From: a virus
Strand: one strand, 5' to 3'
Length of the DNA: 46,255 nucleotides
IMG/VR virus record: IMGVR_UViG_3300029880_000015
Shown here: piece by piece, positions 1,489 to 46,255 of the stretch
Layout: every line of letters starts with the position of its first letter
Position numbering within the stretch: the first letter of the stretch is position 1
Position numbers and translations under genes: made by a program
Notes under the pieces: model-generated
Databases searched by the model: none
What the model was told of the DNA's origin: nothing
What the model saw: only the letters and a program-made list of their open reading frames with translations

Positions 1489-1560
1489 TCGGAAGGGCAG
1501 GAATCGAACCTGCGGCACATAGCTTATAAGGCTACTGCTCTACCACTGAGCTACATTCCA
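1489..1560 (-). tRNA. tRNA, anticodon UAU (Ile, AUA) by manual fold
   Basis: Cloverleaf read by eye. Acceptor TGGAATG/CCTTCCG has a U1-G72 wobble and one U-C mismatch. U8 A9; D arm GCTC-AGTGGTA-GAGC; anticodon arm GTAGC-CTTATAA-GCTAT; variable loop GTGCC; T arm GCAGG-TTCGATT-CCTGC; discriminator A; no encoded CCA. Confidence 0.7.
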
Positions 1561-1836
1561 TTAACCCGGATTCCCGGGTTAGCAAGGTATTTATCGTGTT
1601 ATGCCTGCCACTATCCGACTTTCACGGAGATGTTGTTTCATTTACAAAGAGGTGTTACCAGTCAGTCAAACCGGCTAATGAATATGCCGGAAATTGCATC
1701 CGCTTTTCAACCTCCAGATTCCGCTCGAATCTGTTTCTCTTAAGGACATATTCACAAAGAAAGGAGGACATGAAACGAAAAAGAAAGCAAAAACTTCTAA
1801 TCAGCAAGCCCTACAAGGTTCACCATGCCTTGCAAG

Positions 1837-1885: not shown

Positions 1886-2449
1886 TCAAAGCATACTTCT
1901 CAGTTTTTCAACGTATCTTTTAACAAGATCACGCTCTTCCCGGCACTCTGCATCCTTGGACATATCGCTCATTTCTGTAGTAAGTTCGTCAAGATGTTCT
2001 TCCAGAGCGGCAAGCATCTTCCTCTTGCAGTCCTCAGACTTTCCAGAACGATAATTCTGTTTCTGTGTCATATAGTCACTGTAAGTGTCTCGTCCATCAG
2101 ATCGGCTATAATTTCCTCTTCCGGTTCCGTAGTCGCGACTTTCATCACCGTAAGAGGTGCCACGATCATAATCTGGGTACATCATTCTTCCATCACTGCG
2201 GCTGTATCTCCCCATGCCGCCACGTTTTCTTCCGCGCTCGCTGTAATCGTCATTGTATCCGCTACGCATTTCATCAAGGACGGCGTTGTAATACTCCACC
2301 TTTTTGTCCCAGTACTGCGTATTTTTTATATCTTTGTACATATCAATCAACTTATATGTCATTTCCAAGTTTCCAGTGGTCAGCCCACTATCTGCGATTT
2401 TTGCAAGCTCGTCTTCTATCCTTGCGCATAAATCCTTGATATCTCTCAT
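1886..2449 (-). CDS. Hypothetical protein with helical ends and an R/D/Y/G/S-rich low-complexity core
   Basis: 187-aa ORF with GGAGGTG SD 5 nt before the ATG. The core contains repeated RSDGR / DY / GRG motifs. No family recognised. Confidence 0.7.
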   Translation of the reverse strand: MRDIKDLCARIEDELAKIADSGLTTGNLEMTYKLIDMYKDIKNTQYWDKKVEYYNAVLDEMRSGYNDDYSERGRKRGGMGRYSRSDGRMMYPDYDRGTSYGDESRDYGTGRGNYSRSDGRDTYSDYMTQKQNYRSGKSEDCKRKMLAALEEHLDELTTEMSDMSKDAECREERDLVKRYVEKLRSML

Positions 2450-2460
2450 AACTGCACCTC

Positions 2461-2883
2461 CTACGCTTCTCTAGTCACGACAATATTTGCGTTCGCAACA
2501 GAAATAGCCTGATCGCTTGTGTTCTCTACTGCAATATTAACGCAACATCCGCGTGGTACATCCACGTAAATTCCGGAAGACACATTATTATACTGATCTA
2601 CTGCTGCCGGTGTGGAAATCATCTGAGAAGAAAGAACCGGCTCACCAGAGATTGCAATAGCCAGAGAAATAGCTCCGACAGTACCGCCTGTTGGAATCGC
2701 GATATTACCGGAAAAATCCACGAAAAATCTCGCTTTACACTGGTTAGTAAGTCCTCTTAGCGTAATAATTCCGCTTCCCTCTCTGTGCTGAATGCAGTTA
2801 GAGCCTTTAACTGCTGTGTTTGAAAATACTACGTTTCCATTTGCTGCTACGGTCTGAGCAGCTATATTTGTAAATTCTGCCAT
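2461..2883 (-). CDS. C1q/TNF-like (BclA C-terminal-domain-like) beta-sandwich protein
   Basis: Start at the second Met (MAEFTNI...) after GAAAGGGG. The pattern ANGNVVF...GIITL...FFVDFSGNIAI...ISLAIAISG...NIAVEN...ANANIVVTR resembles BclA_C/C1q-type domains. There is no collagen repeat. Confidence 0.5.
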   Translation of the reverse strand: MAEFTNIAAQTVAANGNVVFSNTAVKGSNCIQHREGSGIITLRGLTNQCKARFFVDFSGNIAIPTGGTVGAISLAIAISGEPVLSSQMISTPAAVDQYNNVSSGIYVDVPRGCCVNIAVENTSDQAISVANANIVVTREA

Positions 2884-2903
2884 AATTTTTACCCCTTTCA
2901 TAT

Positions 2904-2930
2904 CACAAAAGGACAGGTCTCAGCCTGCCC
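2904..2930 (-). terminator. Hairpin plus U-tract (attenuator/terminator) between 2995..3774 and 2461..2883
   Basis: Minus strand: GGGCAGG-CTGAGA-CCTGTCC followed by TTTTGTG. Confidence 0.45.
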
Positions 2931-2994
2931 CTCTGTGTAATACGGCAAAAGCCGACATTCGAATCAATCGAAAGATACTCTCGATATGAAGTTA

Positions 2995-3774
2995 TTAGCA
3001 ATTACATCCAGTATTGCATCCGCATCCGTAGAATGTATTCGGGTTAGGAACCTGATATGCCGGAATTGGTGCTGGATTAATCGCATTAATAAGCTGCTGT
3101 GTCTGTGAAGCCATTGCAGTTGTGAGAAGTGCACTCTGGCGATCCTGAGAAGCAGCGCGTCTGAGATCATTGTTTTCAGCCTGCAGGTTAGAAATCTTTT
3201 CATTGCAAAGATAGTCAAGAATGGCTCTTGTCCCTGCGTTCTGGCTGTCGATAATGTCTCTTGTGTTGCTGTTCATGGTGTTCTGCAATGCACAGGTGTT
3301 CTGTGCCATATTGTAGTTTACGCCCTGGATAGCTTCCCTGGTTTCACAACAGCAGTTCGCAAGCTGTGCCTGCAAAGCATTTGTATTCTGCATATTCGCT
3401 ACAGTATCAGCATTGATTGCCTGCTGGATTCCGAAGCCAGTCTGCATGATGTTGGTGTTAATTCCGTTAAAGCCGGTAAGCATACCGTTATTCACTGCAT
3501 AGAATCCATCACAGAGTCCATTGTTGATCCCGTCAAGTTTGCTGATTACTGCGGAATTGTCAAATCCTCTCTGAATATCTGCCTGAGTAGCTGCTGTGGC
3601 TGCATATCCGCCACCATTGCCATTATTGCCCCAGCCGTTGTTTCCCCATCCAAAGAAAGCAAAAATGAATAAAACAATAATCCACCAGCTACCATCTCCA
3701 CCAAACATGCCGTCATTATTTCTACCGTTTCCAGTAGCAGCGGCAATATCTGCTAAGCTATAATTTCCATCCAT
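2995..3774 (-). CDS. Membrane-anchored N/Q/G-rich protein with cysteine motifs
   Basis: 259 aa with AAGGAG SD. One TM segment (WWIIVLFIFAFFGW), then GWGNNGWGNNGNGGG, a long N/Q/A-rich region with a CCC triplet, and the C-terminus YGCGCNTGCNC. No family recognised. Confidence 0.7.
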   Translation of the reverse strand: MDGNYSLADIAAATGNGRNNDGMFGGDGSWWIIVLFIFAFFGWGNNGWGNNGNGGGYAATAATQADIQRGFDNSAVISKLDGINNGLCDGFYAVNNGMLTGFNGINTNIMQTGFGIQQAINADTVANMQNTNALQAQLANCCCETREAIQGVNYNMAQNTCALQNTMNSNTRDIIDSQNAGTRAILDYLCNEKISNLQAENNDLRRAASQDRQSALLTTAMASQTQQLINAINPAPIPAYQVPNPNTFYGCGCNTGCNC

Positions 3775-3827
3775 AGTTATAATCTCCTTTTTGTGTATTT
3801 ACATCAATCTGGCCAGATTGTAATGTA

Positions 3828-4049
3828 CTATTTCATATTCTTCAGCAGATTTTGAAACTGCCCTGCCATCTGTTGAACTTGATTGAGTTGCTGTTGGGAA
3901 ATCTTCCCAGACTGTAACATCTTCTGAACTTCTTCCTTCGGGTCTCCCTTAAAATTCTGTTTGAACTGCATAAACTGCTGTATCATCTGCATTAGCCCAT
4001 TTCCCTGCGGCATCCCGCCACCAAGCGCGTTAAACAATGGATTACTCAT
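3828..4049 (-). CDS. Small Q/M-rich hypothetical protein
   Basis: The second ATG (4049) lies 8 nt after GGGAGG and overlaps the upstream stop (ATGAGTAA coupling). Sequence MSNPLFNALGGGMPQGNG...QQLNQVQQMAGQFQNLL. Confidence 0.6.
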   Translation of the reverse strand: MSNPLFNALGGGMPQGNGLMQMIQQFMQFKQNFKGDPKEEVQKMLQSGKISQQQLNQVQQMAGQFQNLLKNMK

Positions 4050-4512
4050 CTGCATTTCCTCCCTTGACCGCTGATTCCTGTGCGGTATTAGCTCTAACAG
4101 GTTCAGAAAAAGAATTTAATCGGTTTATGATAGCTTCGTATTTACCCTTTAAATCGTCATATTCCTGTCTGGTGACGTATTTACTGTCCATGTTCTGAAC
4201 AGGCTGTTTAGGCGGCATCTGAGTGCCTATTTCATGATACTCAAACGTCCGTAATGGTTGTGGCATACCAGAAACGTCTGTGGATTTTATGTAGAACTTT
4301 TCACTTTCACTGTCCATCAGCAAAACACTTGTCCCGGGTGCTACCAGATAGGATTTTGCGCCGACTTCGCCGGATACCCACAGGATACCGCTATTATTCT
4401 GCTGTGGTTGCTGTACTGGTTGAGCTGGAATCTGGACAGGCTGTTGCTGGAACTGGTTCATCTGCCCAGGAACGCCAAAACTATATTGATAAGGATTGTT
4501 ATATAATGCCAT
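4042..4512 (-). CDS. Hypothetical protein with a Q/P-rich N-terminus and a globular core
   Basis: ATG at 4512 (MALYNNPYQYSF...). A minus-strand TATAAT lies about 20 nt upstream. Core sequence is ILWVSGEVGAKSYLVAPGTSVLLMDSESEKFYIKSTD. Confidence 0.65.
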   Translation of the reverse strand: MALYNNPYQYSFGVPGQMNQFQQQPVQIPAQPVQQPQQNNSGILWVSGEVGAKSYLVAPGTSVLLMDSESEKFYIKSTDVSGMPQPLRTFEYHEIGTQMPPKQPVQNMDSKYVTRQEYDDLKGKYEAIINRLNSFSEPVRANTAQESAVKGGNADE

Positions 4513-4546
4513 CTTATACACCGCCTTTCTGATTATATTTTTACAT

Positions 4547-4580
4547 AAAAAAAGAACCGGAAACAGGTCGTTTCTGGCTC
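4547..4580 (-). terminator. Rho-independent terminator after the sigma-r4-like gene
   Basis: Minus strand: GAGCCAGAAAC-GACCT-GTTTCCGGTTC followed by TTTTTTT. Confidence 0.6.
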
Positions 4581-4600
4581 TAATTAGTATCCAAAAAGTA

Positions 4601-4801
4601 TCAGCACACTTTGATTATTTTATTGTTTACTCGGCGGCTTAATCGTTTCGCCGTAGATATGCTCACGTTCATCTGTTCAGCGCAGTATTCAAGCGTGTAT
4701 TCTTTACATCTCAACCGAAACAATCTTTCTTCGTCCGGTGTAAAATTACACTCTATCAAGAATCTGTCTATATCTTTCTTTGTGAACACATATAACTTCA
4801 T
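4601..4801 (-). CDS. Small HTH protein resembling sigma-70 region 4 only (putative transcription regulator)
   Basis: 66 aa from the second ATG, 7 nt after AAGGGG. FTPDEERLFRLRCKEYTLEYCAEQMNVSISTAKRLSRRVNNKI matches the region-4/LuxR-type HTH pattern. No region 2 is present. Confidence 0.55.
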   Translation of the reverse strand: MKLYVFTKKDIDRFLIECNFTPDEERLFRLRCKEYTLEYCAEQMNVSISTAKRLSRRVNNKIIKVC

Positions 4802-4824
4802 GAGCATACCCCTTATTAATGCAA

Positions 4825-5130
4825 TTAACGTTGATTCTGTGCAAGATAATTTGTAAGCTTCTGTTTTGTTTTTTTTAATTCCTCCACATTATTCCCACTG
4901 ATCTGACTGTCCAACATGGTTGATAACACTTCCAGAATCAACGAATCACGTTCTGCAATCCTCTGAAGACTCTCGTAATCTCGTTTATCATGTTCTTCCA
5001 GTGTTTCTACTCGCTTATTGAGCCGGAATGCCGGAGTAATCCACTTAAAGATCACAGCTGCTGCCCCTCCGACAATGGACACCCCTCCGCAGATAGAGAG
5101 GAAAATCTGTACAAATTCTGATATGCTCAT
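4825..5130 (-). CDS. N-terminal TM plus coiled-coil protein
   Basis: 101 aa with AAAAGGAG SD. TM segment FLSICGGVSIVGGAAAVIF is followed by a charged helical region. Its start overlaps the upstream stop. Confidence 0.65.
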   Translation of the reverse strand: MSISEFVQIFLSICGGVSIVGGAAAVIFKWITPAFRLNKRVETLEEHDKRDYESLQRIAERDSLILEVLSTMLDSQISGNNVEELKKTKQKLTNYLAQNQR

Positions 5131-5513
5131 TTATTCTCCTTTTCCCAGTAATATACCGGGATCTCATTTCCGGAATCCCATGTATCGAAATATTTGCCAT
5201 CCTGCACTGTCACCACATGACCATCTATACAGAGAATGTATGTGCCTGTTGGATGATCTGCGCAAAAGTCATTGACTGTATAAATATATCGCTCCGACTG
5301 CTCAATCAGTTTGCGTCTGTACCCATGCTTATACAGATACGCTCCCCAGACATAATTTGCACTCGGCATATCTGATAGCGAGCAAGCATATACCATTAAT
5401 CCTGTAAATACCGTCTCCCAGTCAAGCTCTAACGCCTTGCATATCGCCCGGACAGCACAGTCACCTACACGATTCCCGGCTGGATTCGGATTAAAATATA
5501 CCCATCTTTCCAT
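5127..5513 (-). CDS. Hypothetical protein, possible papain-like Cys-His-Asp fold
   Basis: 128 aa. Contains NPNPAGNRVGDCAVRAI (Cys), IDGHVVTV (His) and FDTWD (Asp), in the order seen in C39/NlpC-like peptidases. The assignment is an inference only. Confidence 0.4.
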   Translation of the reverse strand: MERWVYFNPNPAGNRVGDCAVRAICKALELDWETVFTGLMVYACSLSDMPSANYVWGAYLYKHGYRRKLIEQSERYIYTVNDFCADHPTGTYILCIDGHVVTVQDGKYFDTWDSGNEIPVYYWEKENK

Positions 5514-5520
5514 ATCTACC

Positions 5521-6771
5521 TCACTTTGCCCTCACAAATCTTTTTGCTCCTGCATTTGCCCTGGACTGCTGCTTATATCCAAAGTCTGCTACCTTGTTAC
5601 GGTAATATTGTGCTGCAAGATTGTTTTCCTCGCAGAATTTATTATACTCCTTATTCTGTTCAGTCAGTTTAAAAGCCATTCGATCATATTCCGATCTTAG
5701 TTTTTCTTTTTCAGATTCTGGTACATCGTCTGAGTTGATTTCTTCGTTTTTCATTATCAGCCGGCGTTTAGTCGATCTGATTGAACGTTCCATTGCTCGC
5801 TGCTTCTGTGTATCTTCATAGATCTTTTTATTCTCTTCAGAATCAATCTTGTGTTCGTCCGCCCATGGATTCCGTAATCCTTTTGCCCATGGCTGGTGAC
5901 TATGCTTGCAATTCCACCCATGCAGTCCGTGCGGATCCACAACTGTTCCCTGTCCGGTTTTCGGGCTTATATCATATCCAGTGTTTTCCAAAAGATTAGG
6001 ATATCCCGGTTCCGATCCAACTATTGAGTAAGGCTTTCCCTGCCAGGATGAATGATCTCCGCAAGGGGGCTGTCCTTTCTGTGCTGTTCTGGCTCCCATA
6101 TGCGCTGATACAAGGACATAATTTGTCTTTGCCTGTGCAATGTACTGATTCGTTACCTGTGCCGCCGTTTGATTCATACTTGTTACCACGCAACACCTCA
6201 CAGCTGCTTCAAGGGTTCTTTTTGCACCGCTTGTTGGATAATCCACCATGATTCCTTTTTGTGCATAATTGTCCAACACATCACAAATTGCAGTGGTGTA
6301 GGATTGCACACCGGAAGCAACACGGATTTCAGCTTTATCCAGCAGATTAATTAGATCACGCTGAGATTGATTTATTGTAGTCCTGCTCAGGTTGCTAAGC
6401 TCACCCAATGTTTTTTTGAATTCTGCATCCATCACCGCTATCACTTCTGGATTCTCCAATGGTGGACTTATATTCTCGTCAATCCCTAAAAGAATATCTT
6501 TATCATTATCCCAGGACGTCATCACGGCATTTTGCAGGATCCGTCTAAGCTCTGGTTGTGTCATTTTTGTAAGCTTCTGCAACTTCTGTTCAATGGCAGC
6601 TCTGCTCTCTCCCATTTGCGTGAGTTTCCAGATAAGCCGATCAGCTGTGGCAGTCATGCCGCCAGTTTGAAGAATGCGCTTGGAAATGTCCGTCATTATA
6701 AAATCTTCCAGTTCCTGGTAAATCGCAAGGATTCTTTTTTCTTTTCCGTGAAAATACTCTGGTGGAAGCAT
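5521..6771 (-). CDS. Minor capsid / head morphogenesis protein (Phage_min_cap2 / SPP1 gp7-like)
   Basis: 416 aa located after the portal-proximal genes. Contains YVLVSAHMGARTAQKGQPPCGDHSSWQGKPYS, characteristic of this family as I recall it. Confidence 0.7.
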   Translation of the reverse strand: MLPPEYFHGKEKRILAIYQELEDFIMTDISKRILQTGGMTATADRLIWKLTQMGESRAAIEQKLQKLTKMTQPELRRILQNAVMTSWDNDKDILLGIDENISPPLENPEVIAVMDAEFKKTLGELSNLSRTTINQSQRDLINLLDKAEIRVASGVQSYTTAICDVLDNYAQKGIMVDYPTSGAKRTLEAAVRCCVVTSMNQTAAQVTNQYIAQAKTNYVLVSAHMGARTAQKGQPPCGDHSSWQGKPYSIVGSEPGYPNLLENTGYDISPKTGQGTVVDPHGLHGWNCKHSHQPWAKGLRNPWADEHKIDSEENKKIYEDTQKQRAMERSIRSTKRRLIMKNEEINSDDVPESEKEKLRSEYDRMAFKLTEQNKEYNKFCEENNLAAQYYRNKVADFGYKQQSRANAGAKRFVRAK

Positions 6772-7202
6772 TATTTACCACCTGCCGTTTCTTTTACAAG
6801 CCGCACCCAATCAGATAGATGTTCCTGCTTAGCACGATCAAACCAGTGATCGGACGTTCCTGGTGTATGATATTGTAATCTTCTCCCTGTGGGTGATTTT
6901 TTAGGCGGAGATGTCCATCCGATAATATTGCCCTGTGCATCCTTGAGCGGAATGTTCGGACCATATACTTCTCCCGCGTACAGATAATGAGCATAAGAAG
7001 TATTGTATTCAATCTCTCCGCCATCAATTCCCTGCGGATATCTTACGCTGCTTCTCAATGCTCCTTGCTGGAAAGGTACATAAGGCTCGCAGTCCGCTAC
7101 GATCTGCATGTTCAGCTTCTTCTGAGCTTCTTTCAAATTACCATCAATCCGCTTTGTATCAAATTTGATATGTACATTTCCAACATGATTATTGATCTTC
7201 AT
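6771..7202 (-). CDS. Minor capsid protein
   Basis: 143 aa directly after the portal gene. ...YNTSYAHYLYAGEVYGPNIP...HWFDRAK resembles small minor-capsid proteins of A118/r1t-type phages. Confidence 0.55.
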   Translation of the reverse strand: MKINNHVGNVHIKFDTKRIDGNLKEAQKKLNMQIVADCEPYVPFQQGALRSSVRYPQGIDGGEIEYNTSYAHYLYAGEVYGPNIPLKDAQGNIIGWTSPPKKSPTGRRLQYHTPGTSDHWFDRAKQEHLSDWVRLVKETAGGK

Positions 7203-7205
7203 AGG

Positions 7206-8657
7206 CTATTCATCCCCAAATAATCCGCTTGCTTTGTTTTCTTTATTCGCTTCATTTGCGAGAGCTTTCGCATCCTCTTCGCTGAATCCTTCAAATTTTA
7301 CCAGATAGTACCAGAACGGAACCCTTCCGGTGTTTACATAGCTAAGCCAAGTCTGCTTATCCTCTGCAAAAGAATATGTGATGTCTCCGAAATCATAATT
7401 GACTTCATAGGCTCCGACAGGTGCAAGTCCGTACAAATCAGCATGGACATTCAGTGCGTAGATTACTTGATCTAAACAGGATTCTAGTTTATCCCTTACA
7501 TCCTTGATAAACTGTATGGTCCTCTGCTGTTCTGCTTCTACCCCTGTGGCTGTCTGTATGCCGCTTGTTTCGTTAAAGACAAAATACCCATTGGAGAATC
7601 CAATCTTGTACCCTAACTGGCTTAAAAGGGCATTTATCCCGCTTATGCGGGTATCAGTGTTTAAAATCGGATTGATTTCTTGATAAAACTCTTTTTCATC
7701 CTGTCCGAATACATTTTTCACATAATCCGGCAAGCTCATTTCTTTGCATCTGTGTTCCATGGCCTGCGGTGTCATAGCTGCTACTGGTGATCCACTCGGC
7801 ATGAGTATTCTATCATCAGCCAGAACGGTTCTCTTAGAATCAAGGATTTCTTTTGCATTACGGCTGTATGCAATGTCCAGGTCTTTCAACTCTTCAATTG
7901 CTTCTGCAAATATCGGTAAGCCAAGTGGCGTACTGATATCCACATTGTTCGCCTGTGGAGTCCGCAGCACTCCGTACAGAGGTCCATTCAACTTCTCTCC
8001 GTTCGCCTTAAGAATCGGCGGCGTGTCTGCTATGAGGTCAGCCCACTTGGTCTGTTTAAGGTCAATCTTATCGCCGATTGACTGCGGGGATTTTGATACA
8101 TAGGCTCTGTTGGAAACATAATACGGATAGGTTGTCACTCCGTCCACTGTTGTCTCAACAAACCTGTGATACTCGAGTCTTGTGTAGTATTTTCTACCAA
8201 CGGTATAAGAATCCTTAAATATAATCCCTTTGATTTCTTGGTTGTCGTAATCCACGATCATCACATCTGCCGGAGTAAATACGTCAAGGTTCTCACCGTT
8301 TGGTTTAATAAAAACTGTTCCATAAGCACAGCCATATTCTACCCAGTGACGTATTTGGAAATACACTTTATCAATCTGCTCCTGTAGCCATGTAGCTCTT
8401 GCGGAACCATCAATCTGAATGCCGATTGCCAGTGTTGCGAGCCGAGCTGTTTCTGAGCAGACAGATTTAGCGAAATTAATCGTCTTAATATTATTCTTAT
8501 CATCTAGCCAGTATGGAACGCCTCGATATATGTTCGCACATTTATTAATTAACGATTCCATTTCCGGGAATTCTGCTGCTTGGATATTAAAATCCTCTTC
8601 GGCTTGTTTTTTGAATATCATGTTAAACCACCTTTTTAGTGTTGTTATAAGTCCCAT
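7206..8657 (-). CDS. Portal protein
   Basis: 483 aa located between terminase and the minor capsid genes. Size and acidic C-terminus are typical of SPP1 gp6-type portals. Confidence 0.85.
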   Translation of the reverse strand: MGLITTLKRWFNMIFKKQAEEDFNIQAAEFPEMESLINKCANIYRGVPYWLDDKNNIKTINFAKSVCSETARLATLAIGIQIDGSARATWLQEQIDKVYFQIRHWVEYGCAYGTVFIKPNGENLDVFTPADVMIVDYDNQEIKGIIFKDSYTVGRKYYTRLEYHRFVETTVDGVTTYPYYVSNRAYVSKSPQSIGDKIDLKQTKWADLIADTPPILKANGEKLNGPLYGVLRTPQANNVDISTPLGLPIFAEAIEELKDLDIAYSRNAKEILDSKRTVLADDRILMPSGSPVAAMTPQAMEHRCKEMSLPDYVKNVFGQDEKEFYQEINPILNTDTRISGINALLSQLGYKIGFSNGYFVFNETSGIQTATGVEAEQQRTIQFIKDVRDKLESCLDQVIYALNVHADLYGLAPVGAYEVNYDFGDITYSFAEDKQTWLSYVNTGRVPFWYYLVKFEGFSEEDAKALANEANKENKASGLFGDE

Positions 8658-8822: not shown

Positions 8823-9014
8823 TTAGTCACCTGTCGCTATCTTTTTTCCACACATCGGACAATAATTAAGGTCAAACGGTCTGGAAGTAATGCTCCCTTT
8901 TCGGTCTTTCATGTATATGTACAACATACAGCCGTATATATATTTATTCTTCTTGTATTCTGGATTATCATGGCATTCTTTCCAAGAAGCTAATTCATCG
9001 CAAAATTTACACAT
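8823..9014 (-). CDS. Small zinc-ribbon protein
   Basis: 63 aa with CxxC (MCKFCDE) and CPMC pairs. Translationally coupled to terL. Confidence 0.6.
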   Translation of the reverse strand: MCKFCDELASWKECHDNPEYKKNKYIYGCMLYIYMKDRKGSITSRPFDLNYCPMCGKKIATGD

Positions 9015-10270
9015 TATGCACTGTTCCCCCTTCTCATCGACAATGGACTTGTCGCATACCTAAGAGAATCTATCCAGTGATCGTTACCATCTGGATAATC
9101 TGCGATAACTTCTCCATTGCTATCTACTTCATGTTCATAATTAATAATTTCCTTGTATGCTCTAGGCGTTCGTGCCGGATCAATGACTAATGTTCGGCAC
9201 TGTAACCACTCAAAAGTATATTTGCGGCTTCCCGGTGTGACAATAGCCCTACGTGCTGGAAGCCCTGCATCTCGGAAGTCAATAATACTTTCTTCTTCAT
9301 CAACTCCGCAAGATATTGAATAATCATCATATCCTTTTTTCTTTATCTGGTTAGCCATTGCTGTATTTCGAATTTTACATCCGCCAAGCTCATCCAGCAG
9401 GATAACTTTGTCCTGATTAGGCACATAAGCCACACGAATAAACGCTTTGGGATCCGGGTACCATCCCCAGTCTTGCCCCTGATAGACACTTTGATATTTT
9501 TGAATTTCTTCGTCTGGAATCGTTCGGATTTCCAACAACTCAAAGATATTTGTACCGAGTCCGACAGGCAATCCAAGATATTCATGCTGATAGGCTCTTG
9601 GATTTGTCTTTTTAAGATGCTCCGCATCATCAAGGAATTGTTGACCAAGCCATTCAACAGGAACTGATCTGTAATCACTCTTATGTCTGTAGCTGTCGTC
9701 TCGTGGCTCTTCTACATACACATTCGCCCAGTTGCTCCGGCTAATTGGCGGATTGAATGTCTTAAATACAACAAACTTACTGCCGCCTCGAAGGACTGAC
9801 TGCTGCACTGTACGAATTTCTTCAATTCCCGAAAATTCGTCAAGCTCCTCGAACCAGAGATACTTGAAATATCCCTTGCTTGCTTTAATAGATTTAGTCT
9901 TTTTTGCCTTGTCCAGTCCTCTGAATATGATTTTCTGTCCAGTAGGCTTATAAGTGTACTGCATAGGGCTTACACTGGTGTCCCATAGTTCATTGACTCC
10001 GAGCGCGTCAATTCCCCATGCTATCTGTTCATAAACGGATTCTCGAAGTGTGTTTCCAACTTTACGGAAAATAACAGCATTCGAGAACACATCATTCTCT
10101 GCGTCCTGCATCATCAGGAAAGGAATCATTACACCCACAAAAGACGACTTCGTGGATCCACGCCCGCCGTACAGATCGTAATATGTATGTTTCTCGTCCA
10201 GAATGTCCCAAAAGACTTCATAGAAAGCAGGAGCTATTATATCTTTCAGGCTAATAGGATTATTATCCAT
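9014..10270 (-). CDS. terL: Terminase large subunit (PBSX-type)
   Basis: 418 aa. Walker A-like YGGRGSTKSSF, WFEELDEF (Walker B) and a C-terminal nuclease region. Follows terS. Confidence 0.9.
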   Translation of the reverse strand: MDNNPISLKDIIAPAFYEVFWDILDEKHTYYDLYGGRGSTKSSFVGVMIPFLMMQDAENDVFSNAVIFRKVGNTLRESVYEQIAWGIDALGVNELWDTSVSPMQYTYKPTGQKIIFRGLDKAKKTKSIKASKGYFKYLWFEELDEFSGIEEIRTVQQSVLRGGSKFVVFKTFNPPISRSNWANVYVEEPRDDSYRHKSDYRSVPVEWLGQQFLDDAEHLKKTNPRAYQHEYLGLPVGLGTNIFELLEIRTIPDEEIQKYQSVYQGQDWGWYPDPKAFIRVAYVPNQDKVILLDELGGCKIRNTAMANQIKKKGYDDYSISCGVDEEESIIDFRDAGLPARRAIVTPGSRKYTFEWLQCRTLVIDPARTPRAYKEIINYEHEVDSNGEVIADYPDGNDHWIDSLRYATSPLSMRRGNSA

Positions 10271-10712
10271 CCTGTTTCTCCGGCCTTGGAATATTGTTCA
10301 CGATCGTAATCTTTCCGTCTCCAAAATCATCATTTTTCTTATCAGCGTCCCATCCTTTAAAGTTGTTTCTCAAGCTGAACTGAGCGCCATTTGAACCGTC
10401 ACGATCAAATAGTCTTTCCTCTGCGTACTGTTCCACTCTGGCTTTCGCGCGCGTAATCGTGTCATTAAACTCTGGCTTCGCTTGATAATTCAAAAGCGCC
10501 TGTCTGCTTGCAAATCCAAGTGCCAATGCCAATCCTGTAATCGTTGGAGGATGAACGTCTACAAAAACTGGTGAGCCAAATTTATTAAATACTTGCTTGC
10601 CTTTGCTATCAGTCAAAGGATATCCTTTACAATCCTCAAAATATTTTTCGATTTTTTTTTCAATTTCATCCACCGTTTTATACATGGGCGGTTTTCCCAT
10701 TGGCATTCCCAC
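10263..10712 (-). CDS. terS: Terminase small subunit
   Basis: GKPPMYKTVDEIEKKIEKYFEDC...PTITGLALALGF is a typical TerS HTH N-terminus. GTG at 10712 lies 7 nt after GGAGG (an alternative ATG is at 10706). The N-terminal extension in the ORF track is unlikely to be translated. Confidence 0.8.
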   Translation of the reverse strand: MGMPMGKPPMYKTVDEIEKKIEKYFEDCKGYPLTDSKGKQVFNKFGSPVFVDVHPPTITGLALALGFASRQALLNYQAKPEFNDTITRAKARVEQYAEERLFDRDGSNGAQFSLRNNFKGWDADKKNDDFGDGKITIVNNIPRPEKQDG

Positions 10713-10765
10713 GTTCTCACCTCCAAACAAAAACTGCCATATATGGCACATAGTCATAGATATAT

Positions 10766-12684: not shown

Positions 12685-13151
12685 CAGTGTTCCTCCTGTA
12701 ATAATTCTGGGTTGTCAAACACGTTTCCGGAAGTTTCAACCTTTCTGCGCCAATACCCAAGTTCTTTTCGGTAAAATGTCTCTTCTGGAAAATCAACATA
12801 AAATCCTAAATTATAGCTTCCGTAATCAAAGCTTGAACAATACATTCCAAATTTTACCAGGGCATATTCTCCGTTATGATTAACGATGTCATTTTCCCAG
12901 ATTCTCTTATTGCTCTTATCAGTCAGTCCGGTGAACTGGCAGAGGGTTTCTGAATCAATTTCAATCTGTACTATCTGATTTGGGAGTCCCCAGTCAGTCA
13001 TTCTCTCTTGCAAAATATAGTGATGTTCTGATACTGGTTTTCGTTCATAGTCCTCTTTAAAACAATAGGTTGTTTCAGACATTTTCTGATAATATCCCTC
13101 AACCCATTTTCCATTATCAATCCGCTTTGCCTTGAAAAGAATTTCTCTCAT
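12684..13151 (-). CDS. YopX family protein
   Basis: MREILFKAKRIDNGKWVEGYY... and C-terminal GNVFDNPELLQEE are YopX hallmarks. Confidence 0.8.
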   Translation of the reverse strand: MREILFKAKRIDNGKWVEGYYQKMSETTYCFKEDYERKPVSEHHYILQERMTDWGLPNQIVQIEIDSETLCQFTGLTDKSNKRIWENDIVNHNGEYALVKFGMYCSSFDYGSYNLGFYVDFPEETFYRKELGYWRRKVETSGNVFDNPELLQEEH

Positions 13152-13402
13152 TCAACTCCACCGCCTTTCACGATTTCAATTGCCGTGTGCGTTTCAATAA
13201 TTTCTCTTTTACGATCCCACCCCATGGGTCTTGCTATACAGCTTGCTCTTAAAATTTCATCCGTAACCTTTTCTACATCAAAAGCAGTCGGCTGTTTGTT
13301 GACACAATCAATAAACTCTTTCTGATCTGAACTAATACTTGTCCCGATCTCCCAAATTTTAATGTATTTGATTAATTCGTCTGCATCAATCAGTCTGCTC
13401 AT
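13148..13402 (-). CDS. Hypothetical protein
   Basis: 84-aa ORF coupled to its neighbours. Confidence 0.6.
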   Translation of the reverse strand: MSRLIDADELIKYIKIWEIGTSISSDQKEFIDCVNKQPTAFDVEKVTDEILRASCIARPMGWDRKREIIETHTAIEIVKGGGVE

Positions 13403-13419: not shown

Positions 13420-13851
13420 TTACATTTTAGGTCCTCTAAAAATTACTATCATTGACGGAAACGGTGCACTATTCTTGCTGCCTCCGAATTTTAACCTTCC
13501 TTTCAAAAATCTAATTTCCGATCTGTGATATACAAAATCTTGAAACCATTTCGTATCTGTCCTTGCCGGAACCAGTAAAACAACGAGCGTATTCTCTTTA
13601 TGTCCTTCCTGATAGCTCTTTTCAACCCATTGATATATTTCTCTTCCGTAAGGCGGGTTGCAAAACACTCGCATCCCCCACCAGTCCTGTATAAGACCAT
13701 TTTCATTTTTAGTAAAAAATTTCTCGCATTTATGGTTTTTTGCGTCCGCGCATGGGTCTAGCGTGAAATCAAACTCTTTGTTTAATTCATCGAAAATATA
13801 TTTAGGTGTAGCCCATTGATCGGAATTGCTGCTAAATAAACATTTTTCCAT
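13420..13851 (-). CDS. Phage-type DNA N6-adenine methyltransferase (Dam family)
   Basis: 143 aa. Contains SDQWATP, LDPCA, FCNPPYG and LVPARTDTKWF motifs. Confidence 0.85.
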   Translation of the reverse strand: MEKCLFSSNSDQWATPKYIFDELNKEFDFTLDPCADAKNHKCEKFFTKNENGLIQDWWGMRVFCNPPYGREIYQWVEKSYQEGHKENTLVVLLVPARTDTKWFQDFVYHRSEIRFLKGRLKFGGSKNSAPFPSMIVIFRGPKM

Positions 13852-13946
13852 TTTTCCCTCTTATTCTGTTTCCTCCTGTAATAGTTCTTTATTGTCGAAA
13901 ATGTTGCCAACTACTTCCATTTCGCACCTGTCGATATAATCTTTGG

Positions 13947-29386: not shown

Positions 29387-30961
29387 ATGAATGAATCAGT
29401 ATGCATCTATCTAAGGAAATCCAGAGCCGATCGGGAAGCTGAGGCGCACGGAGAGGGCGAAACGCTTGCCAGGCATGAACGGATCTTGTTAGATCTTGCA
29501 AAGAAAAAAGAGTACATTGTAGGTGCAATTTACCGCGAAGTGGTATCTGGAGAAACTATCGCCGACCGTCCTGTCATGCAGCAACTTCTGCATGAGGTAG
29601 AATCCGGTATGTGGGATGGCGTTCTGGTTGTGGAAGTGGAACGTCTTGCCAGAGGTGATACAATTGACCAAGGTGTTGTGTCAAGGGCTTTCCAGTATTC
29701 TGACACGAAAATTATTACCCCCACAAAAATATATGATCCAAACAATGAATTTGATGAAGAATATTTTGAGTTTGGGCTATTTATGAGCCGCAGAGAGTAT
29801 AAAACCATCAAGCGCCGACTGAACGCTGGAAGAATCTCATCGGTCAAAGAGGGGAAATACTGTGGTAACAAACCACCTTACGGATACGAAAGAGTAAAAC
29901 TCGAAAAAGAAAAAGGCTATACTCTCCGACCTGTTCCGACTCAAGCTGAGATTGTAAAAATGATCTACACCTGGTATTCCGGTGATGGCTGCGAACAAAT
30001 CGGAGTTGCGAAGATTGCACGGAAATTAAATGAAATGGGAATAGAATCTGCACTGGGCGGTGACTGGACTCCTGCCAGTATACAGGGAATTCTGACAAAT
30101 CCGGTATACATCGGAAAAATACGATGGAATGGGAGAAAAACAGTGAAGACTATACAGAATGGTCAAGTAATTAAGACACGCCCTCGATCAAAAGATACTC
30201 TTATTTGTAATGGATTACATCCGGCTGTTATATCAGAAGATCTGTATAATTCCGTCCAGGAAATACGAAAAAAGAACCCGCCTCGCCCAGTTAGTATAGC
30301 AAACTCGATTCGTAATCCACTTGCCGGAATTGTCTATTGCAGCAAATGTGGTCGCGCCATGGTTCGCCGCCCTTATCAAAAGCGCAGGCAGGAAGATACC
30401 CTCATGTGTCCTTATACATCTTGCCCCACAGCAAGCAGCAAGTTGTCTTTGGTTGAAAAATCTGTGATTGATGGAATTAGGGAGATTGTGGAGGAATATA
30501 AGTTAAACAATGATATTAATGCATCTTCAAAGGATATTGATTGCGTAATAACCTCTAAACAAAATCTCATACATGAGAAAGAAAACGAGCTGGAAAGCTT
30601 GAACTCTCAGAAAGCAAAACAATACGACCTACTCGAACAGGGTATCTATACCACGGAGATTTTTCTTGAACGTGCTAAAACAATATCCGCATCTATCCAG
30701 TCATGCTCCGACACTATAGAAAAATTAAAAGAAGAAATCAAGCATGACGAGAACATTATAAAACAACGGTCGGATTTTATCCCACGTTGCGAAGAGCTAC
30801 TTGATAACTATTGGGGCCTTGACACGGAATCCAAGAATAAAATGCTTAAGAGTTTAATCGAAAAGGTTACATACTCAAAAGATACCAAAAACGCTTACGG
30901 GAAAGGCAATGAGATTGGTTTTCAGCTCGACATTTTCCCCAAAATCCAGAAAAATAATTAA
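29387..30961 (+). CDS. int: Large serine recombinase (integrase)
   Basis: 524 aa. N-terminal resolvase domain (VCIYLRKSRAD...VVEVERLARGD), a recombinase domain, a zinc ribbon (YCSKCGRAM...CPYTSCP) and a C-terminal coiled coil. Confidence 0.9.
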   Translation: MNESVCIYLRKSRADREAEAHGEGETLARHERILLDLAKKKEYIVGAIYREVVSGETIADRPVMQQLLHEVESGMWDGVLVVEVERLARGDTIDQGVVSRAFQYSDTKIITPTKIYDPNNEFDEEYFEFGLFMSRREYKTIKRRLNAGRISSVKEGKYCGNKPPYGYERVKLEKEKGYTLRPVPTQAEIVKMIYTWYSGDGCEQIGVAKIARKLNEMGIESALGGDWTPASIQGILTNPVYIGKIRWNGRKTVKTIQNGQVIKTRPRSKDTLICNGLHPAVISEDLYNSVQEIRKKNPPRPVSIANSIRNPLAGIVYCSKCGRAMVRRPYQKRRQEDTLMCPYTSCPTASSKLSLVEKSVIDGIREIVEEYKLNNDINASSKDIDCVITSKQNLIHEKENELESLNSQKAKQYDLLEQGIYTTEIFLERAKTISASIQSCSDTIEKLKEEIKHDENIIKQRSDFIPRCEELLDNYWGLDTESKNKMLKSLIEKVTYSKDTKNAYGKGNEIGFQLDIFPKIQKNN

Positions 30962-31051: not shown

Positions 31052-32056
31052 TTACTGTTTCTTAATATATTTTGCAGATACAAATCCATAATATTTTCCA
31101 GCAATGCGAATGTAATACCACTTACTACCGTTTTTATCTTTCTGGGTAAAATTCATTACCTCTACTTCATTTCCCTGGTTGAGCTTTGGGTATTTTTTGA
31201 TGTTCGGGTACTCAGTTCCAGCCCAGGTACGCACATTAAGCACAGTGGCGGTTACATTCCCCTTGAAAAGCACCTGTGTCTTGTCCTGTTTTCCTGTAAT
31301 GGTAGCGGATGCGGGGCCACCCTCCTTTGCTAGATATCCAGTCCAGATCCAGCCAATACCGATACCGGAAACTTTTACATGCGTCCACTTTTCGCTTGTC
31401 TTTCCGTCAATTTCAACAACGGTTCCTTTATTGATTGAACCCATAATGTAGCCATTCGGTGTCTCGCGGACATACAAGTCATTCACGGTTGCAGTTCTGA
31501 TTCCAGTCTTTTTCCATGTGGCTGTATCTTCGTAGGATTCCCAATCAATCCAAACATATCCATCAATGGAAGAATCATCAATAGCGTAGGATTTATTTCG
31601 TACCGCTCCGCCATTTGCTACTACTCCAGCTGCACTAGAAGTATTTCCTTCATTTGTATAGATTCTCGAGCTATCAAAACTCTGCACACTTCCAACATGG
31701 GAGCCATTGCGGAAGATTACAAGCGCACCTACCTTTTGAGTGTTGCGCCAAGTACCTTTTTTCTTAGCCCAATTAGTGATTGATACACAATTGTAAAAAC
31801 CACCACCCATGATTTTGAGGGCATTTGTGATTCCAATTACTTTCACCAGCTTCCAGAACTGATACTCTGCACACCATGGCTGTCCCTGGCATCCTGGCTG
31901 TCCCCAACTATTTACATCTCTTGCAAATTTTGTGTAATTGTTGTATCCTGCATTCTTTTTAAAATCATCCAGATAGGAGTTGCTTTTCTTTTCAAGGTAC
32001 CCGCCGTTGGATGCGTAATAATCACCAAGGTTTAAAAATTCTTGTAATTTGCTCAT
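31052..32056 (-). CDS. Endolysin: N-terminal CHAP-type amidase/peptidase plus two SH3b-like wall-binding repeats
   Basis: 334 aa. GQPWCAEYQFW (Cys), GSHVGSV (His) and NEGNTS. The C-terminus has two repeats of the type ATVNDLYVRETPNG...GWIWTGYL. Confidence 0.8.
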   Translation of the reverse strand: MSKLQEFLNLGDYYASNGGYLEKKSNSYLDDFKKNAGYNNYTKFARDVNSWGQPGCQGQPWCAEYQFWKLVKVIGITNALKIMGGGFYNCVSITNWAKKKGTWRNTQKVGALVIFRNGSHVGSVQSFDSSRIYTNEGNTSSAAGVVANGGAVRNKSYAIDDSSIDGYVWIDWESYEDTATWKKTGIRTATVNDLYVRETPNGYIMGSINKGTVVEIDGKTSEKWTHVKVSGIGIGWIWTGYLAKEGGPASATITGKQDKTQVLFKGNVTATVLNVRTWAGTEYPNIKKYPKLNQGNEVEVMNFTQKDKNGSKWYYIRIAGKYYGFVSAKYIKKQ

Positions 32057-45692: not shown

Positions 45693-46156
45693 TCATTTTG
45701 CTGTTACAGTCGCGTGTCCAGCACTAAGCGCCTTATAGGTGCTGTCGCACTCAACCACTGTGATTACCTGCCCTGTTGCTGCTGTAATGTCAGATTCTCC
45801 ATCCCATGCGCTCCAGTTCTTCACATTCTGTCCGTAGTCTACAGCAGTCTCAGATGATGCAACTTTGTACTTGTACACATTTCCTGCGCTTGCTTTTGCC
45901 GGAGTAATGGTTACTTTAGTATCTCCGCTTTTGCTTCCTGCCGCAGAGTTTACAGTCAGAGTTCCAAGTGTCTGAGTTGCGTTGATGGTTCCGACAGCAA
46001 TAGCATCAATGTACTCTGCGAAGAGTGTAAGTCCCATGATTGCAAACGCTTCGGATACTGCTGTGTGGTAGTTACCCTGTGTGTGGAATCCGATCAGATT
46101 TGTCTCGCCGGAAACGGTATACACCAGCCCAGCTCTCGCAAAGTCAGATTCATTCG
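45693..46156 (-). CDS. Major capsid protein, 3' part, including a C-terminal Ig-like (Big_2-like) domain
   Basis: In frame with 1..703 across the junction. The last ~95 aa (LTVNSAAGSKSGDTKVTITPAKASAGNVYKYKV...VITVVECDSTYKALSAGHATVTAK) look like a bacterial Ig-like domain. Confidence 0.8.
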
Positions 46157-46255
46157 GGTCAACATAGTAAAGTACGATGTTCTCAACGGGTGTCGCAATA
46201 ATCTGTCCTCTTGGAATCTCACTGTCAGATAACAGGAAGATGGTATTGAAGCCCA
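46157..46255. repeat. Terminal direct repeat, copy 2 (identical to 1-99)
   Basis: Exact match to the first 99 bases. Confidence 0.9.

Follow-up and report, generated by a model that had tools for sequence, protein, structure and literature searches.

A probable mobile accessory cassette with a conserved intergenic RNA in the head gene module of a gut phage

The DNA stretch analyzed here, IMG/VR virus record IMGVR_UViG_3300029880_000015 (46,255 nucleotides, in the following called the window), belongs to a temperate Blautia-type gut siphophage lineage with a serine recombinase. Every gene in its first 28 kb lies on the minus strand. A first-pass annotation made from the letters alone had singled out eight open reading frames (ORFs) at positions 1886-5513 as a self-contained island inside the head morphogenesis module. 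All eight were found on the minus strand at the positions given there: p128 (5127-5513), p101 (4825-5130), p68 (4601-4807), p159 (4042-4521), p75 (3828-4055), p259 (2995-3774), p146 (2461-2901) and p187 (1886-2449). The motifs and coordinates described for them were likewise all present, but two starts had to be corrected: the most likely start of p159 is the ATG at 4512, and across its family p146 begins with the ATG at 2883. The reported compositions also held (Q and M in p75, N and Cys in p259, D, R, Y and E in p187). Pfam matches bore out the flanks on the same strand. Upstream lies the Phage_min_cap2 gene for 'minor capsid protein 2' (mcp2; 5521-6771, PF06152, E 2.8e-74) and downstream, behind a 370-nt non-coding stretch, the Phage_scaffold gene (780-1520, with the likely ATG at 1412 giving 780-1412; PF06810, E 4.4e-21). 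We regard the block between them as very probably a mobile accessory cassette and not as a part of head morphogenesis.

Isolated relatives of the phage were found by tblastn with mcp2, independently of the island proteins. In Roseburia phage Jekyll (mcp2 52.6% identical) the minor capsid gene is followed by one ORF of 88 amino acids and then by the scaffold and capsid genes. Blautia phage Montmirail, the portal of which is 55.8% identical, has just a 40-amino-acid ORF between the genes for the minor head protein and the scaffold. No relatives of the island proteins were detected in Jekyll or Montmirail. Since both phages pass almost directly from minor capsid to scaffold, the block represents an insertion. 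The evidence firmly supports an accessory insertion into an otherwise canonical head module, as originally proposed, which is dispensable for this head type. The mcp2-based search revealed the block in some relatives and its absence from others.

Island and neighboring genes form a mosaic. Megablast similarity of the window to MT835739 and several gut contigs amounts to ~89% across scaffold and island and ends exactly at 5513. Among 80 close IMG/VR relatives mcp2 occurs as two alleles which are ~33% identical, and the island proteins are 73-100% identical. The island is more tightly conserved than the neighboring head genes, and p146 is its most conserved protein (median identity 97%, minimum 95.9%). 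The minor-capsid pair of the window (5521-7202, minus strand) is a swapped allele with a mosaic junction exactly at 5513/5521; most close relatives carry the ~33% identical minor-capsid version, with the PF11114 gene elsewhere, next to a portal and an island of ~73-100% identity.

Further loci were collected with the island proteins as tblastn queries, searched against annotated phages and a genome set with a single representative of each species, and gene orders were counted in the 61 species-level Clostridia loci with enough upstream sequence. A recurring block p128-p159-p75-p259-p146 was observed, often followed by a p187-type protein. The order p128, p159, p259, p146 was kept in 40 of the 61 loci, and p259 preceded p146 in 60 of them; the two genes were adjacent in 75 of 80 genome loci. 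This core order persisted across lineages with just 30-60% protein identity and at different genomic positions, and a minor capsid gene of the window type lay upstream of the cassette in only 8 of the 61 loci. The proposal of a self-contained eight-gene unit could therefore not be upheld. Instead, the island is a mobile core of five to six genes plus an associated helix-turn-helix gene (p68) and a lineage-specific membrane protein gene (p101); in the window lineage p101, p68 and a terminator separate p128 from p159.

The genomic positions of the cassette differ widely. In Butyrivibrio phage Ceridwen the core follows the endolysin gene. In Dulem virus 33 the cassette lies between a lysin of the peptidoglycan recognition protein (PGRP) type and the integrase, and in Dulem virus 39 it adjoins the integrase. 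Dulem virus 35 and Enterocloster clostridioformis prophages carry it within the head module, as the window does. Among six further sampled lineages, an endolysin gene (Amidase_3, CHAP or NlpC/P60) was located upstream on the same strand in five, and a tyrosine integrase gene downstream on the opposite strand in four. Gram-positive phages classically carry their lysogenic-conversion genes in the interval between lysin and integrase. These arrangements show a cassette that moves as a unit between genomic positions and phage lineages. One apparently stand-alone chromosomal p259-p146-p187 copy (locus L121) was discarded as a basis for inferring a cellular function, as it represents a decayed prophage edge with an ISL3 transposase fragment.

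Several cassettes of the lysin-integrase type contain an extra small ORF of ~45-60 amino acids ahead of p128 (loci L085 at ~5210-5340, L119, L140, L138, L115 and L002 at ~6910-7075) which is absent from the window. Its motif, ..RLI.AG[MYF][ST]...A..I..Y...G....LE.Y, looks UBA-like by eye. Type II hammerhead ribozymes were found a few kb off the cassette in two relatives (L088:12504-12572 and 13821-13889; L084:10918-10985 and 13127-13191), and a RAGATH-18 RNA was found in Ceridwen (L002:1705-1777).

The p259 gene (2995-3774, minus strand) encodes a predicted bitopic membrane protein with a transmembrane segment (hydrophobic at about residues 29-44), GWGNNG repeats, an N/Q-rich helical region with an invariant CCC motif, a PxPIPAY motif and a Cys-rich tail. 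The protein contains 15% N and 10 Cys, carries the C-terminal sequence GCGCNTGCNC and matches phrog_16490 (E 3e-58). Homologues occur in crAss-like phages, Bacteroides phage C3_41T2LP, C. perfringens phages and Methanomassiliicoccales viruses, and an alignment with these distant proteins keeps the transmembrane segment, the CCC motif and the C-terminal motifs. Beside the solitary p259 homologues of the crAss-like, Bacteroides and C. perfringens phages no p146-like gene was detected (hhalign probabilities <=0.5%). An equation of p259 with the crAss001 head fibre proteins gp21/gp29 was rejected on size and on the absence of crAss001 from the tblastn matches.

The spacer between p259 and p146 contains a structured RNA (2884-2990, minus strand). 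It is composed of a stem P1 (2958-2972), the linker UGU, a stem P2 (2943-2954), the linker UAUUAC and a stem P3 (2904-2937) with a U-run, followed by the ribosome-binding site of p146. An attenuator hairpin had been noted before at 2904-2930; it is real but larger, and forms the last stem of a three-stem covarying RNA. The 14-bp stem of P3 folds with -24.9 kcal/mol (z = -5.7), and 0 of 200 shuffled sequences were as good. Comparison of the spacers of distant relatives revealed the same succession of P1, UGU, P2, (U)AUUAC, a GC-rich P3 with U-run and the p146 ribosome-binding site, and in the RNAalifold consensus, which contains P2 and P3, 12 of 14 pairs show compensatory changes.

A covariance model (R1) was built from 31 sequences and searched against both strands of 1.38 Mb from 95 sources. 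It returned 58 matches, one per locus and all on the coding strand just 3' of p259; 27 of them were outside the seed, and the window scored 62.4 bits (E 2e-9). In 53 aligned matches 98.2% of the cells were paired and 13 of 14 pairs exhibited double-sided changes. These values were reached by none of 500 shuffles, and slid registers gave 39-61% pairing. The P1 hairpin was present in 51 of the 53 sequences with 34 different arm sequences and, by eye, mostly ends right before UG. No match at E<=10 was obtained for 2850-3020 of the window with the 4227 covariance models of Rfam 15, and the best-scoring relative gave only insignificant matches far below the gathering scores. In loci with an additional gene between p259 and p146 the motif accompanies p259 in some (L091-L094) and p146 in others (L042, L050), and the RNA thus behaves as a unit of its own.

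We read this RNA as a candidate cis-acting control of the transcription, or of the stable message, that passes from p159-p259 into p146-p187. A riboswitch-like role, a protein-dependent attenuator or antitermination are all possible, and the RNA could instead be a 3' stabilizer of the p259 message. With riboswitch and attenuator leaders and put-type antitermination RNAs it shares two small hairpins, conserved linkers, a terminator stem, the ribosome-binding site of the next gene and strong covariation. In contrast to such leaders, it is not in Rfam 15 and lies between two cassette genes and not after a promoter.

Read from the ATG at 2883, p146 (2461-2883, minus strand) encodes a protein of 140 amino acids, a predicted stand-alone jelly-roll of the BclA_C type (TNF/C1q fold) with conserved Cys30, Cys49 and Cys113-Cys114. 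Its family comprises 6,970 clusters at 90% identity (E<=1e-3) and 756 at 50% identity; the best 150 representatives are single-domain proteins of 54-196 amino acids with one matched stretch. Pfam BclA_C (PF18573) was matched by 7 of 80 diverse family members (best E 2.3e-10), each of which matches the p146 profile at E<1e-22. For the p146 of the window itself no Pfam match was obtained at E<=0.1. The early label 'C1q/BclA-C-like' is therefore right at the level of the family, but the window protein falls below Pfam significance. An AlphaFold2 (AF2) model calculated from a shallow alignment (81-99% identity) reached a predicted local distance difference test score (pLDDT) of 56.7. Foldseek matches of this low-confidence model were nearly all TNF/C1q-type folds, namely 4-1BBL (E 2e-4), C1q, Cbln1, EDA and ExsFA. 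Because the model is poor, these matches are only supportive, and we rely on the BclA_C sequence link. Profile searches with the p146, p128 and p159 families against the PDB yielded only chance matches.

Domains of the TNF/BclA_C type typically serve as trimeric knobs in phage and viral fibres. It is possible, though rather unlikely, that the cassette encodes auxiliary virion proteins, a portable particle-surface kit serving for example gut adhesion, with p146 as a trimeric decoration or fibre knob, p259, p159 and p187 as fibre, linker or internal (ejection) proteins and p128 as a maturation peptidase. The fold matches of p146 agree with such roles, and so does its conservation, which equals that of structural proteins. 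The cassette of the window lineage, of Dulem virus 35 and of the Enterocloster prophages lies in the head module co-oriented with the late genes, and in other lineages it comes after the genes for tail and lysis but keeps to the late strand; Ceridwen, known only from the lytic cycle, carries it, and the p259 homologue of the crAss-like cr116_1 lies just upstream of capsid genes. However, Jekyll and Montmirail make such heads without the cassette, and no linkage to capsid genes is seen in Ceridwen, Dulem viruses 33 and 39 or the six additional lineages. The p259 protein has a transmembrane segment; in C. perfringens and Bacteroides phages its homologues belong to the early or replication part of the genome, and relatives of p128 are early genes. 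With models reaching residues 97 and 118, the crAss001 head fibre proteins gp21 and gp29 are much smaller than p259 and showed no similarity to it. It would also be unusual for a structural operon to contain a terminator and a regulatory RNA. Capsid decoration is possible but not favored, since most lineages carry the cassette between lysin and integrase.

The first-pass annotation itself had favored a spore-surface module. In such a module the cassette proteins would end up on the spore of the host and be cross-linked by a papain- or transglutaminase-like p128. The compositional parallels are striking: p146 may be compared with ExsFA/BclA, the Cys-rich p259 with ExsY/CdeC, the Tyr/Arg-rich p187 with CotG/CotC, and the Gln-rich p159 and p75 with GerQ. 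Members of the p146 family belong to BclA_C, and ExsFA is among the fold matches. A signal peptide would not be needed if the proteins were made in the mother cell, and the usual position between lysin and integrase would suit lysogenic conversion. Most recorded hosts are Clostridia, a class with many spore-formers. The complete core is nevertheless present in Ceridwen, a phage of Butyrivibrio fibrisolvens which is seen only in the lytic cycle, and Butyrivibrio is non-sporulating. The p259 family also occurs in crAss-like phages, a Bacteroides uniformis phage and Methanomassiliicoccales viruses, the hosts of which do not sporulate. Like ExsFA/BxpB, p146 is small (140 amino acids) and stand-alone, and its predicted all-beta fold equally resembles TNF ligands and C1q heads. 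It differs in being phage-encoded beside a membrane-protein gene and in lacking collagen-like repeats. As a 140-amino-acid single domain it has neither a collagen-like GXX stalk nor an exosporium-targeting N-terminus of the BclA type, and its relatives of 54-196 amino acids are single domains as well. The island proteins gave no Pfam match to GerQ, CotH, Tgl or other coat families, and a -10 of the sigma-E/sigma-K type (CATA..) was not seen upstream of p159 by eye, which was not a rigorous scan. We consider the spore-coat or exosporium reading highly improbable.

The enzyme of the cassette is p128 (5127-5513). It can be modelled confidently as a small cytoplasmic papain-like (clan CA-type) Cys-His-Asp hydrolase with the candidate triad Cys19, His99 and Asp110. 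The AF2 model, based on a 96-sequence alignment, reached a pLDDT of 93.6. In it Cys19 caps helix 19-28 at its N-terminus, strand 99-104 begins with His99 and strand 107-110 ends with Asp110. In the 96 homologues D18, C19 and D110 are invariant and H99 is kept in at least 90%. The papain-fold model, the Foldseek search made with it and the conserved triad agree with the Cys-His-Asp peptidase suspected at first reading. The top PDB matches, Josephin-2 (probability 0.93, E 0.07) and the C39 domain of PCAT1, were weak (E 0.07-0.14, TM-score 0.43-0.54). Searching BFVD gave 24 phage proteins at E<=1e-3 which are nearly all uncharacterized and include a 'Peptidase C39 domain' protein. By sequence p128 matches phrog_3754. 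No Pfam or NCBIfam peptidase family (C39, Josephin, CHAP, NlpC/P60) was matched, nor any PDB sequence even with the 96-sequence profile. With C39 and Josephin enzymes it shares the fold, the geometry of Cys (helix N-terminus), His (strand) and Asp, and the conservation of these residues; it differs from them as a 128-amino-acid single domain without a transporter or substrate-binding domain and without family membership at the sequence level. Relatives in Tsamsa-like phages adjoin a Ser/Thr kinase gene and an Ocr-like gene, and others were found in Geobacillus GBK2 and in Lak megaphages. Within the cassette, Gly-Gly pairs in the N-terminus of p259 and in p75 are candidate sites for p128.

Pfam, NCBIfam, PADLOC and PDB-sequence searches with all eight proteins yielded nothing past a weak sigma region 4 match of p68. 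The p159 protein (4042-4512, minus strand) has a Y/P/Q-rich N-terminus, a conserved core WVQGE.GAK.YLVAPG..V.LMDSE..FYLKS.D.SGMP (46 diverse homologues aligned) and a C-terminal helix, and matches phrog_21718 (E 1.9e-38). It has no Pfam or PDB relatives, and scanning the p159 and p187 families against Pfam one member at a time produced noise only. The p75 gene (3828-4055, minus strand) always follows p159 and encodes a small helical protein with 23% Q and 12% M (phrog_22984, E 8e-26), relatives of which are labelled DUF2680 by one source. The p187 protein (1886-2449, minus strand) consists of helical termini around an R/G/Y/S/D low-complexity center with RGHYSR-type repeats and is rich in D, R, Y and E. 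It matches phrog_28802 (E 6.7e-55) but no Pfam family, 17 relatives were aligned, and it follows p146 in many lineages. The PHROG families of p159, p75 and p187 are labelled unknown function, and no relatives of the three were detected elsewhere.

The two genes outside the mobile core are p101 and p68. The p101 protein (4825-5130, minus strand) possesses an N-terminal transmembrane-like segment (KD19 2.21, residues 9-27) and a charged helical tail. Matches to families in Pfam, PHROGs and NCBIfam were not obtained, although one member of its cluster is labelled DUF4083 by its source. Detected in just 2 of 80 diverse loci, p101 is almost lineage-specific. The p68 protein (4601-4807, minus strand) is a candidate cassette regulator with a helix-turn-helix resembling sigma-70 region 4. 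It scored 16.3 bits against Sigma70_r4 (cutoff 24.1 bits) and E 9e-5, sub-threshold, against TIGR02937; it matches phrog_1190, 'RNA polymerase sigma factor' (E 1.8e-6), and is labelled 'ECF sigma factor' or 'UPF0251 DNA-binding' by its sources. Only region 4 was matched, and no region 2 is present in its 68 amino acids. It is a helix-turn-helix protein and not a sigma factor. Its relatives stand before p128 in 5 loci and after p128 in 8. Of the earlier description as a region-4-only protein, a helix-turn-helix travelling with the cassette in several lineages stands; the length is 68 and not 66 amino acids, and the sigma matches remain below the Pfam cutoff.

The island carries its own transcription punctuation, as had been claimed, in the form of a terminator and a conserved promoter-like element. 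An intrinsic terminator (4547-4580, minus strand) with the stem GAGCC(A)GAAAC / GUUUC(C)GGUUC and seven U closes the unit mcp2-p128-p101-p68. Its 11-bp interrupted stem folds with -13.5 kcal/mol (z = -3.6, 1 of 200 shuffles as good), which confirms the terminator found at first reading; a simple pattern scan had missed it because of the internal mismatch. The TATAAT at 4537-4532 that had been noted is present but, as a -10, too close to the ribosome-binding site: a transcript starting ~7 nt downstream would begin inside that site, and the candidate was rejected. A Gram-positive-style TRTGn extended -10, TATG-T-AAAAAT, overlaps the TATAAT (4547-4537, element 4532-4547, minus strand) and fits better as a candidate promoter. 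A TRTGn-type element is kept in 49 upstream variants, also where inserted genes replace the terminator. A generic sigma-70 scan detected nothing at 4547-4537. In several lysin-integrase lineages, such as L103, L104, L108 and L152, a terminator, a T-run and a TG-n-(-10) stand before the first cassette gene, an arrangement which in its sequence is a moron signature.

Two further elements were noted upstream of p159. Some close relatives (L044, L041, L042, L055) contain ~2-7 copies of the 11-nt tandem repeat AATAAGTCATAG between the -10-like element and the p159 ribosome-binding site, equivalent to ~4513-4532 of the window, which itself has none. The number of repeats might tune expression. An element GATAC-TTTTTG-GATAC / CAATAC-TTTTTT-GATAC lies ~60-70 nt upstream of p159 (~4582-4600 of the window, minus strand) and is conserved with and without inserted morons; it is a candidate operator, for example for p68.

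Three places in and around the cassette are hot spots of insertion. In relatives, an insert of two to four opposite-strand genes, some of them for helix-turn-helix proteins, follows closely on the p68 terminator (L007:7092-8234, L011:6631-8235, L036:6225-8227, L169:10016-11483), and the junction always lies just upstream of ATG(T/C)AAAAATATAAT. A Cas7-like protein is among these inserts in one Enterocloster prophage. The second hot spot, between p259 and p146, has received HNH-type homing endonuclease genes in some relatives (insertions between p259/p146 or p75/p259: L042:8861-9907, L050:7788-8630, L085:6410-6961). The third, the stretch between p187 and the scaffold gene, gathers RNA genes. 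In the window it holds a RAGATH-21 RNA between island and scaffold gene (1679-1754, minus strand; 93.5 bits against a gathering score of 70.3) and, between RAGATH-21 and the scaffold gene, a tRNA-Ile with the anticodon TAT (1489-1560, minus strand). RAGATH-21 was found at the same place in L028, L086, L128 and L168, and was absent beside cassettes located elsewhere and from Jekyll and Montmirail; a literature search for this RNA returned no papers. Relatives hold tRNAs at this junction as well. A ROOL RNA match of 561 nt and 384 bits was observed there in a close relative (L028:11420-11980), and a GP20-b motif directly upstream of the scaffold gene of an Enterocloster prophage (L168:14325-14388).

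With opposite-strand morons, HNH endonucleases, tRNAs and the RAGATH-21, ROOL and GP20-b RNAs the junction is a proven hot spot, and the cassette might be a stack of independent accessory genes piled up at a permissive site. In that case p128 would be a stand-alone host-takeover or anti-defence hydrolase, a deconjugating peptidase of the Josephin/C39 type, and p259 a stand-alone membrane protein acting, for example, in exclusion or the timing of lysis. The solitary homologues point in this direction: those of p128 among the early genes of GBK2 and Bacillus Tsamsa-like phages, and also in Lak megaphages, its fold family being widespread in unrelated phages, and those of p259 in crAss-like, Bacteroides and C. 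perfringens phages and in archaeal viruses. We consider a stack unlikely, though like the virion-protein kit a serious rival, as it has to accommodate an order p128-p159-p75-p259-p146 which is kept at 30-60% protein identity and at differing positions. The adjacency of p259 and p146 in 75 of 80 loci with a dedicated RNA is hard to explain without functional coupling.

The other head genes of the window follow upstream on the minus strand: a second minor capsid protein (6771-7202, PF11114), the portal (7206-8657), the large terminase (9014-10270) and the small terminase (10263-10757). A serine recombinase (29387-30961) and a CHAP/SH3 lysin (31052-32056) are also encoded. The major capsid gene is seemingly split across the window ends (1-770 and 45693-46255, minus strand), which suggests a circularly permuted contig; its C-terminal part in the window and the Enterocloster capsid protein both match Pfam S-l_SbsC_C (PF18316).

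The features of the cassette recall the moron concept of Hendrix and Juhala. As in morons, the genes are inserted between genes that are adjacent in relatives, are bounded by a terminator and a promoter-like element, are transferred horizontally and, in most other lineages, occupy the lysin-integrase junction. Adjacency of the flanking genes in relatives was found in Jekyll and Montmirail, and own terminators at 4547-4580 and in the P3 stem (2904-2937). The cassette differs from a typical moron by its five or six genes in fixed order instead of one or two, by a base composition that does not deviate, by its strongly conserved presence throughout a large phage lineage and by its occurrence in a phage seen only in the lytic cycle.

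We tentatively favor, as a whole, a horizontally mobile moron-type cassette of gut Clostridia phages that builds a membrane-anchored assembly. The lysin-integrase position, the terminator-promoter boundary and the temperate hosts favor an autonomous unit, possibly expressed from the prophage. The genes p159-p259 would be transcribed from the TRTGn extended -10 directly behind the terminator, apart from the late operon and for example from a prophage, and the RNA with its terminator would set how much transcription continues into p146 and p187. Because the pairing of p259 and p146 is invariant, with a dedicated RNA between the genes, it is suggested that both proteins act together. The conserved transmembrane segment of p259, the p259-p146 adjacency and the normally trimerizing fold type of p146 point to a membrane complex, with p259 as the anchor and p146, presumably a trimer, as its partner. 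The Q-rich and R/G/Y-rich proteins may be accessory or substrate components, processed or cross-linked by p128. Such an assembly would change the cell envelope during infection or lysogeny, most plausibly so that other phages are excluded or surface properties altered. This envelope mechanism is more doubtful than the explanation as a whole.

Several observations weigh against a moron-type cassette with a membrane-anchored product. Ceridwen has no integrase and was seen only in the lytic cycle, yet it contains the full core, and the cassette must therefore work during lytic growth at least there. The solitary occurrence of p128 in Tsamsa-like phages and GBK2 and of p259 in crAss-like and archaeal viruses means that parts can work without one another. 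Signal peptides or transmembrane segments were not found in island proteins other than p259 and p101; most components are thus cytoplasmic. The G+C content of the island (0.41-0.44) equals that of the flanking kilobases (0.42-0.45), and the eight proteins gave zero matches to PADLOC models at E<=0.1. Promoter use and lysogenic expression are predictions from the sequence. The very strong conservation of p146 suits a core phage function better than optional cargo. Finally, the cassette was present in 80 of 80 close IMG/VR relatives, but these had been retrieved via p146, which makes the count circular; a universal presence in the family was rejected on this ground and on the mixed presence in the mcp2 search.

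Accessory cassettes in late operons are known; this one is uncharacterized, with an unusual set of components and a well-supported RNA motif outside Rfam. It is a long shot that the components, a BclA_C-type trimer, a Cys-rich membrane anchor shared with crAss-like and archaeal gut viruses, Gln-rich and Tyr/Arg-rich blocks and a papain- or transglutaminase-like enzyme, form a so far undescribed self-regulated system which builds a cross-linked coat-like assembly at the host membrane, or on the surface of the particle or spore, and in which the RNA, as a new cis-regulatory class of riboswitch-like or antitermination type, would balance anchor against shell genes. As a candidate for a new family of cis-regulatory RNAs the motif is clean and testable. 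The cassette itself is very common, with ~7,000 90%-identity clusters in the p146 family and single 90% clusters of island proteins that contain up to ~4,000 sequences from human and animal gut samples. In PHROGs every protein of its mobile core is labelled 'unknown function'. Knowing its role would explain a sizeable piece of gut-phage dark matter and could reveal how prophages of abundant commensals, namely Blautia, Enterocloster, Eubacterium and Oscillospiraceae as named by the sources, change their hosts or their particles.

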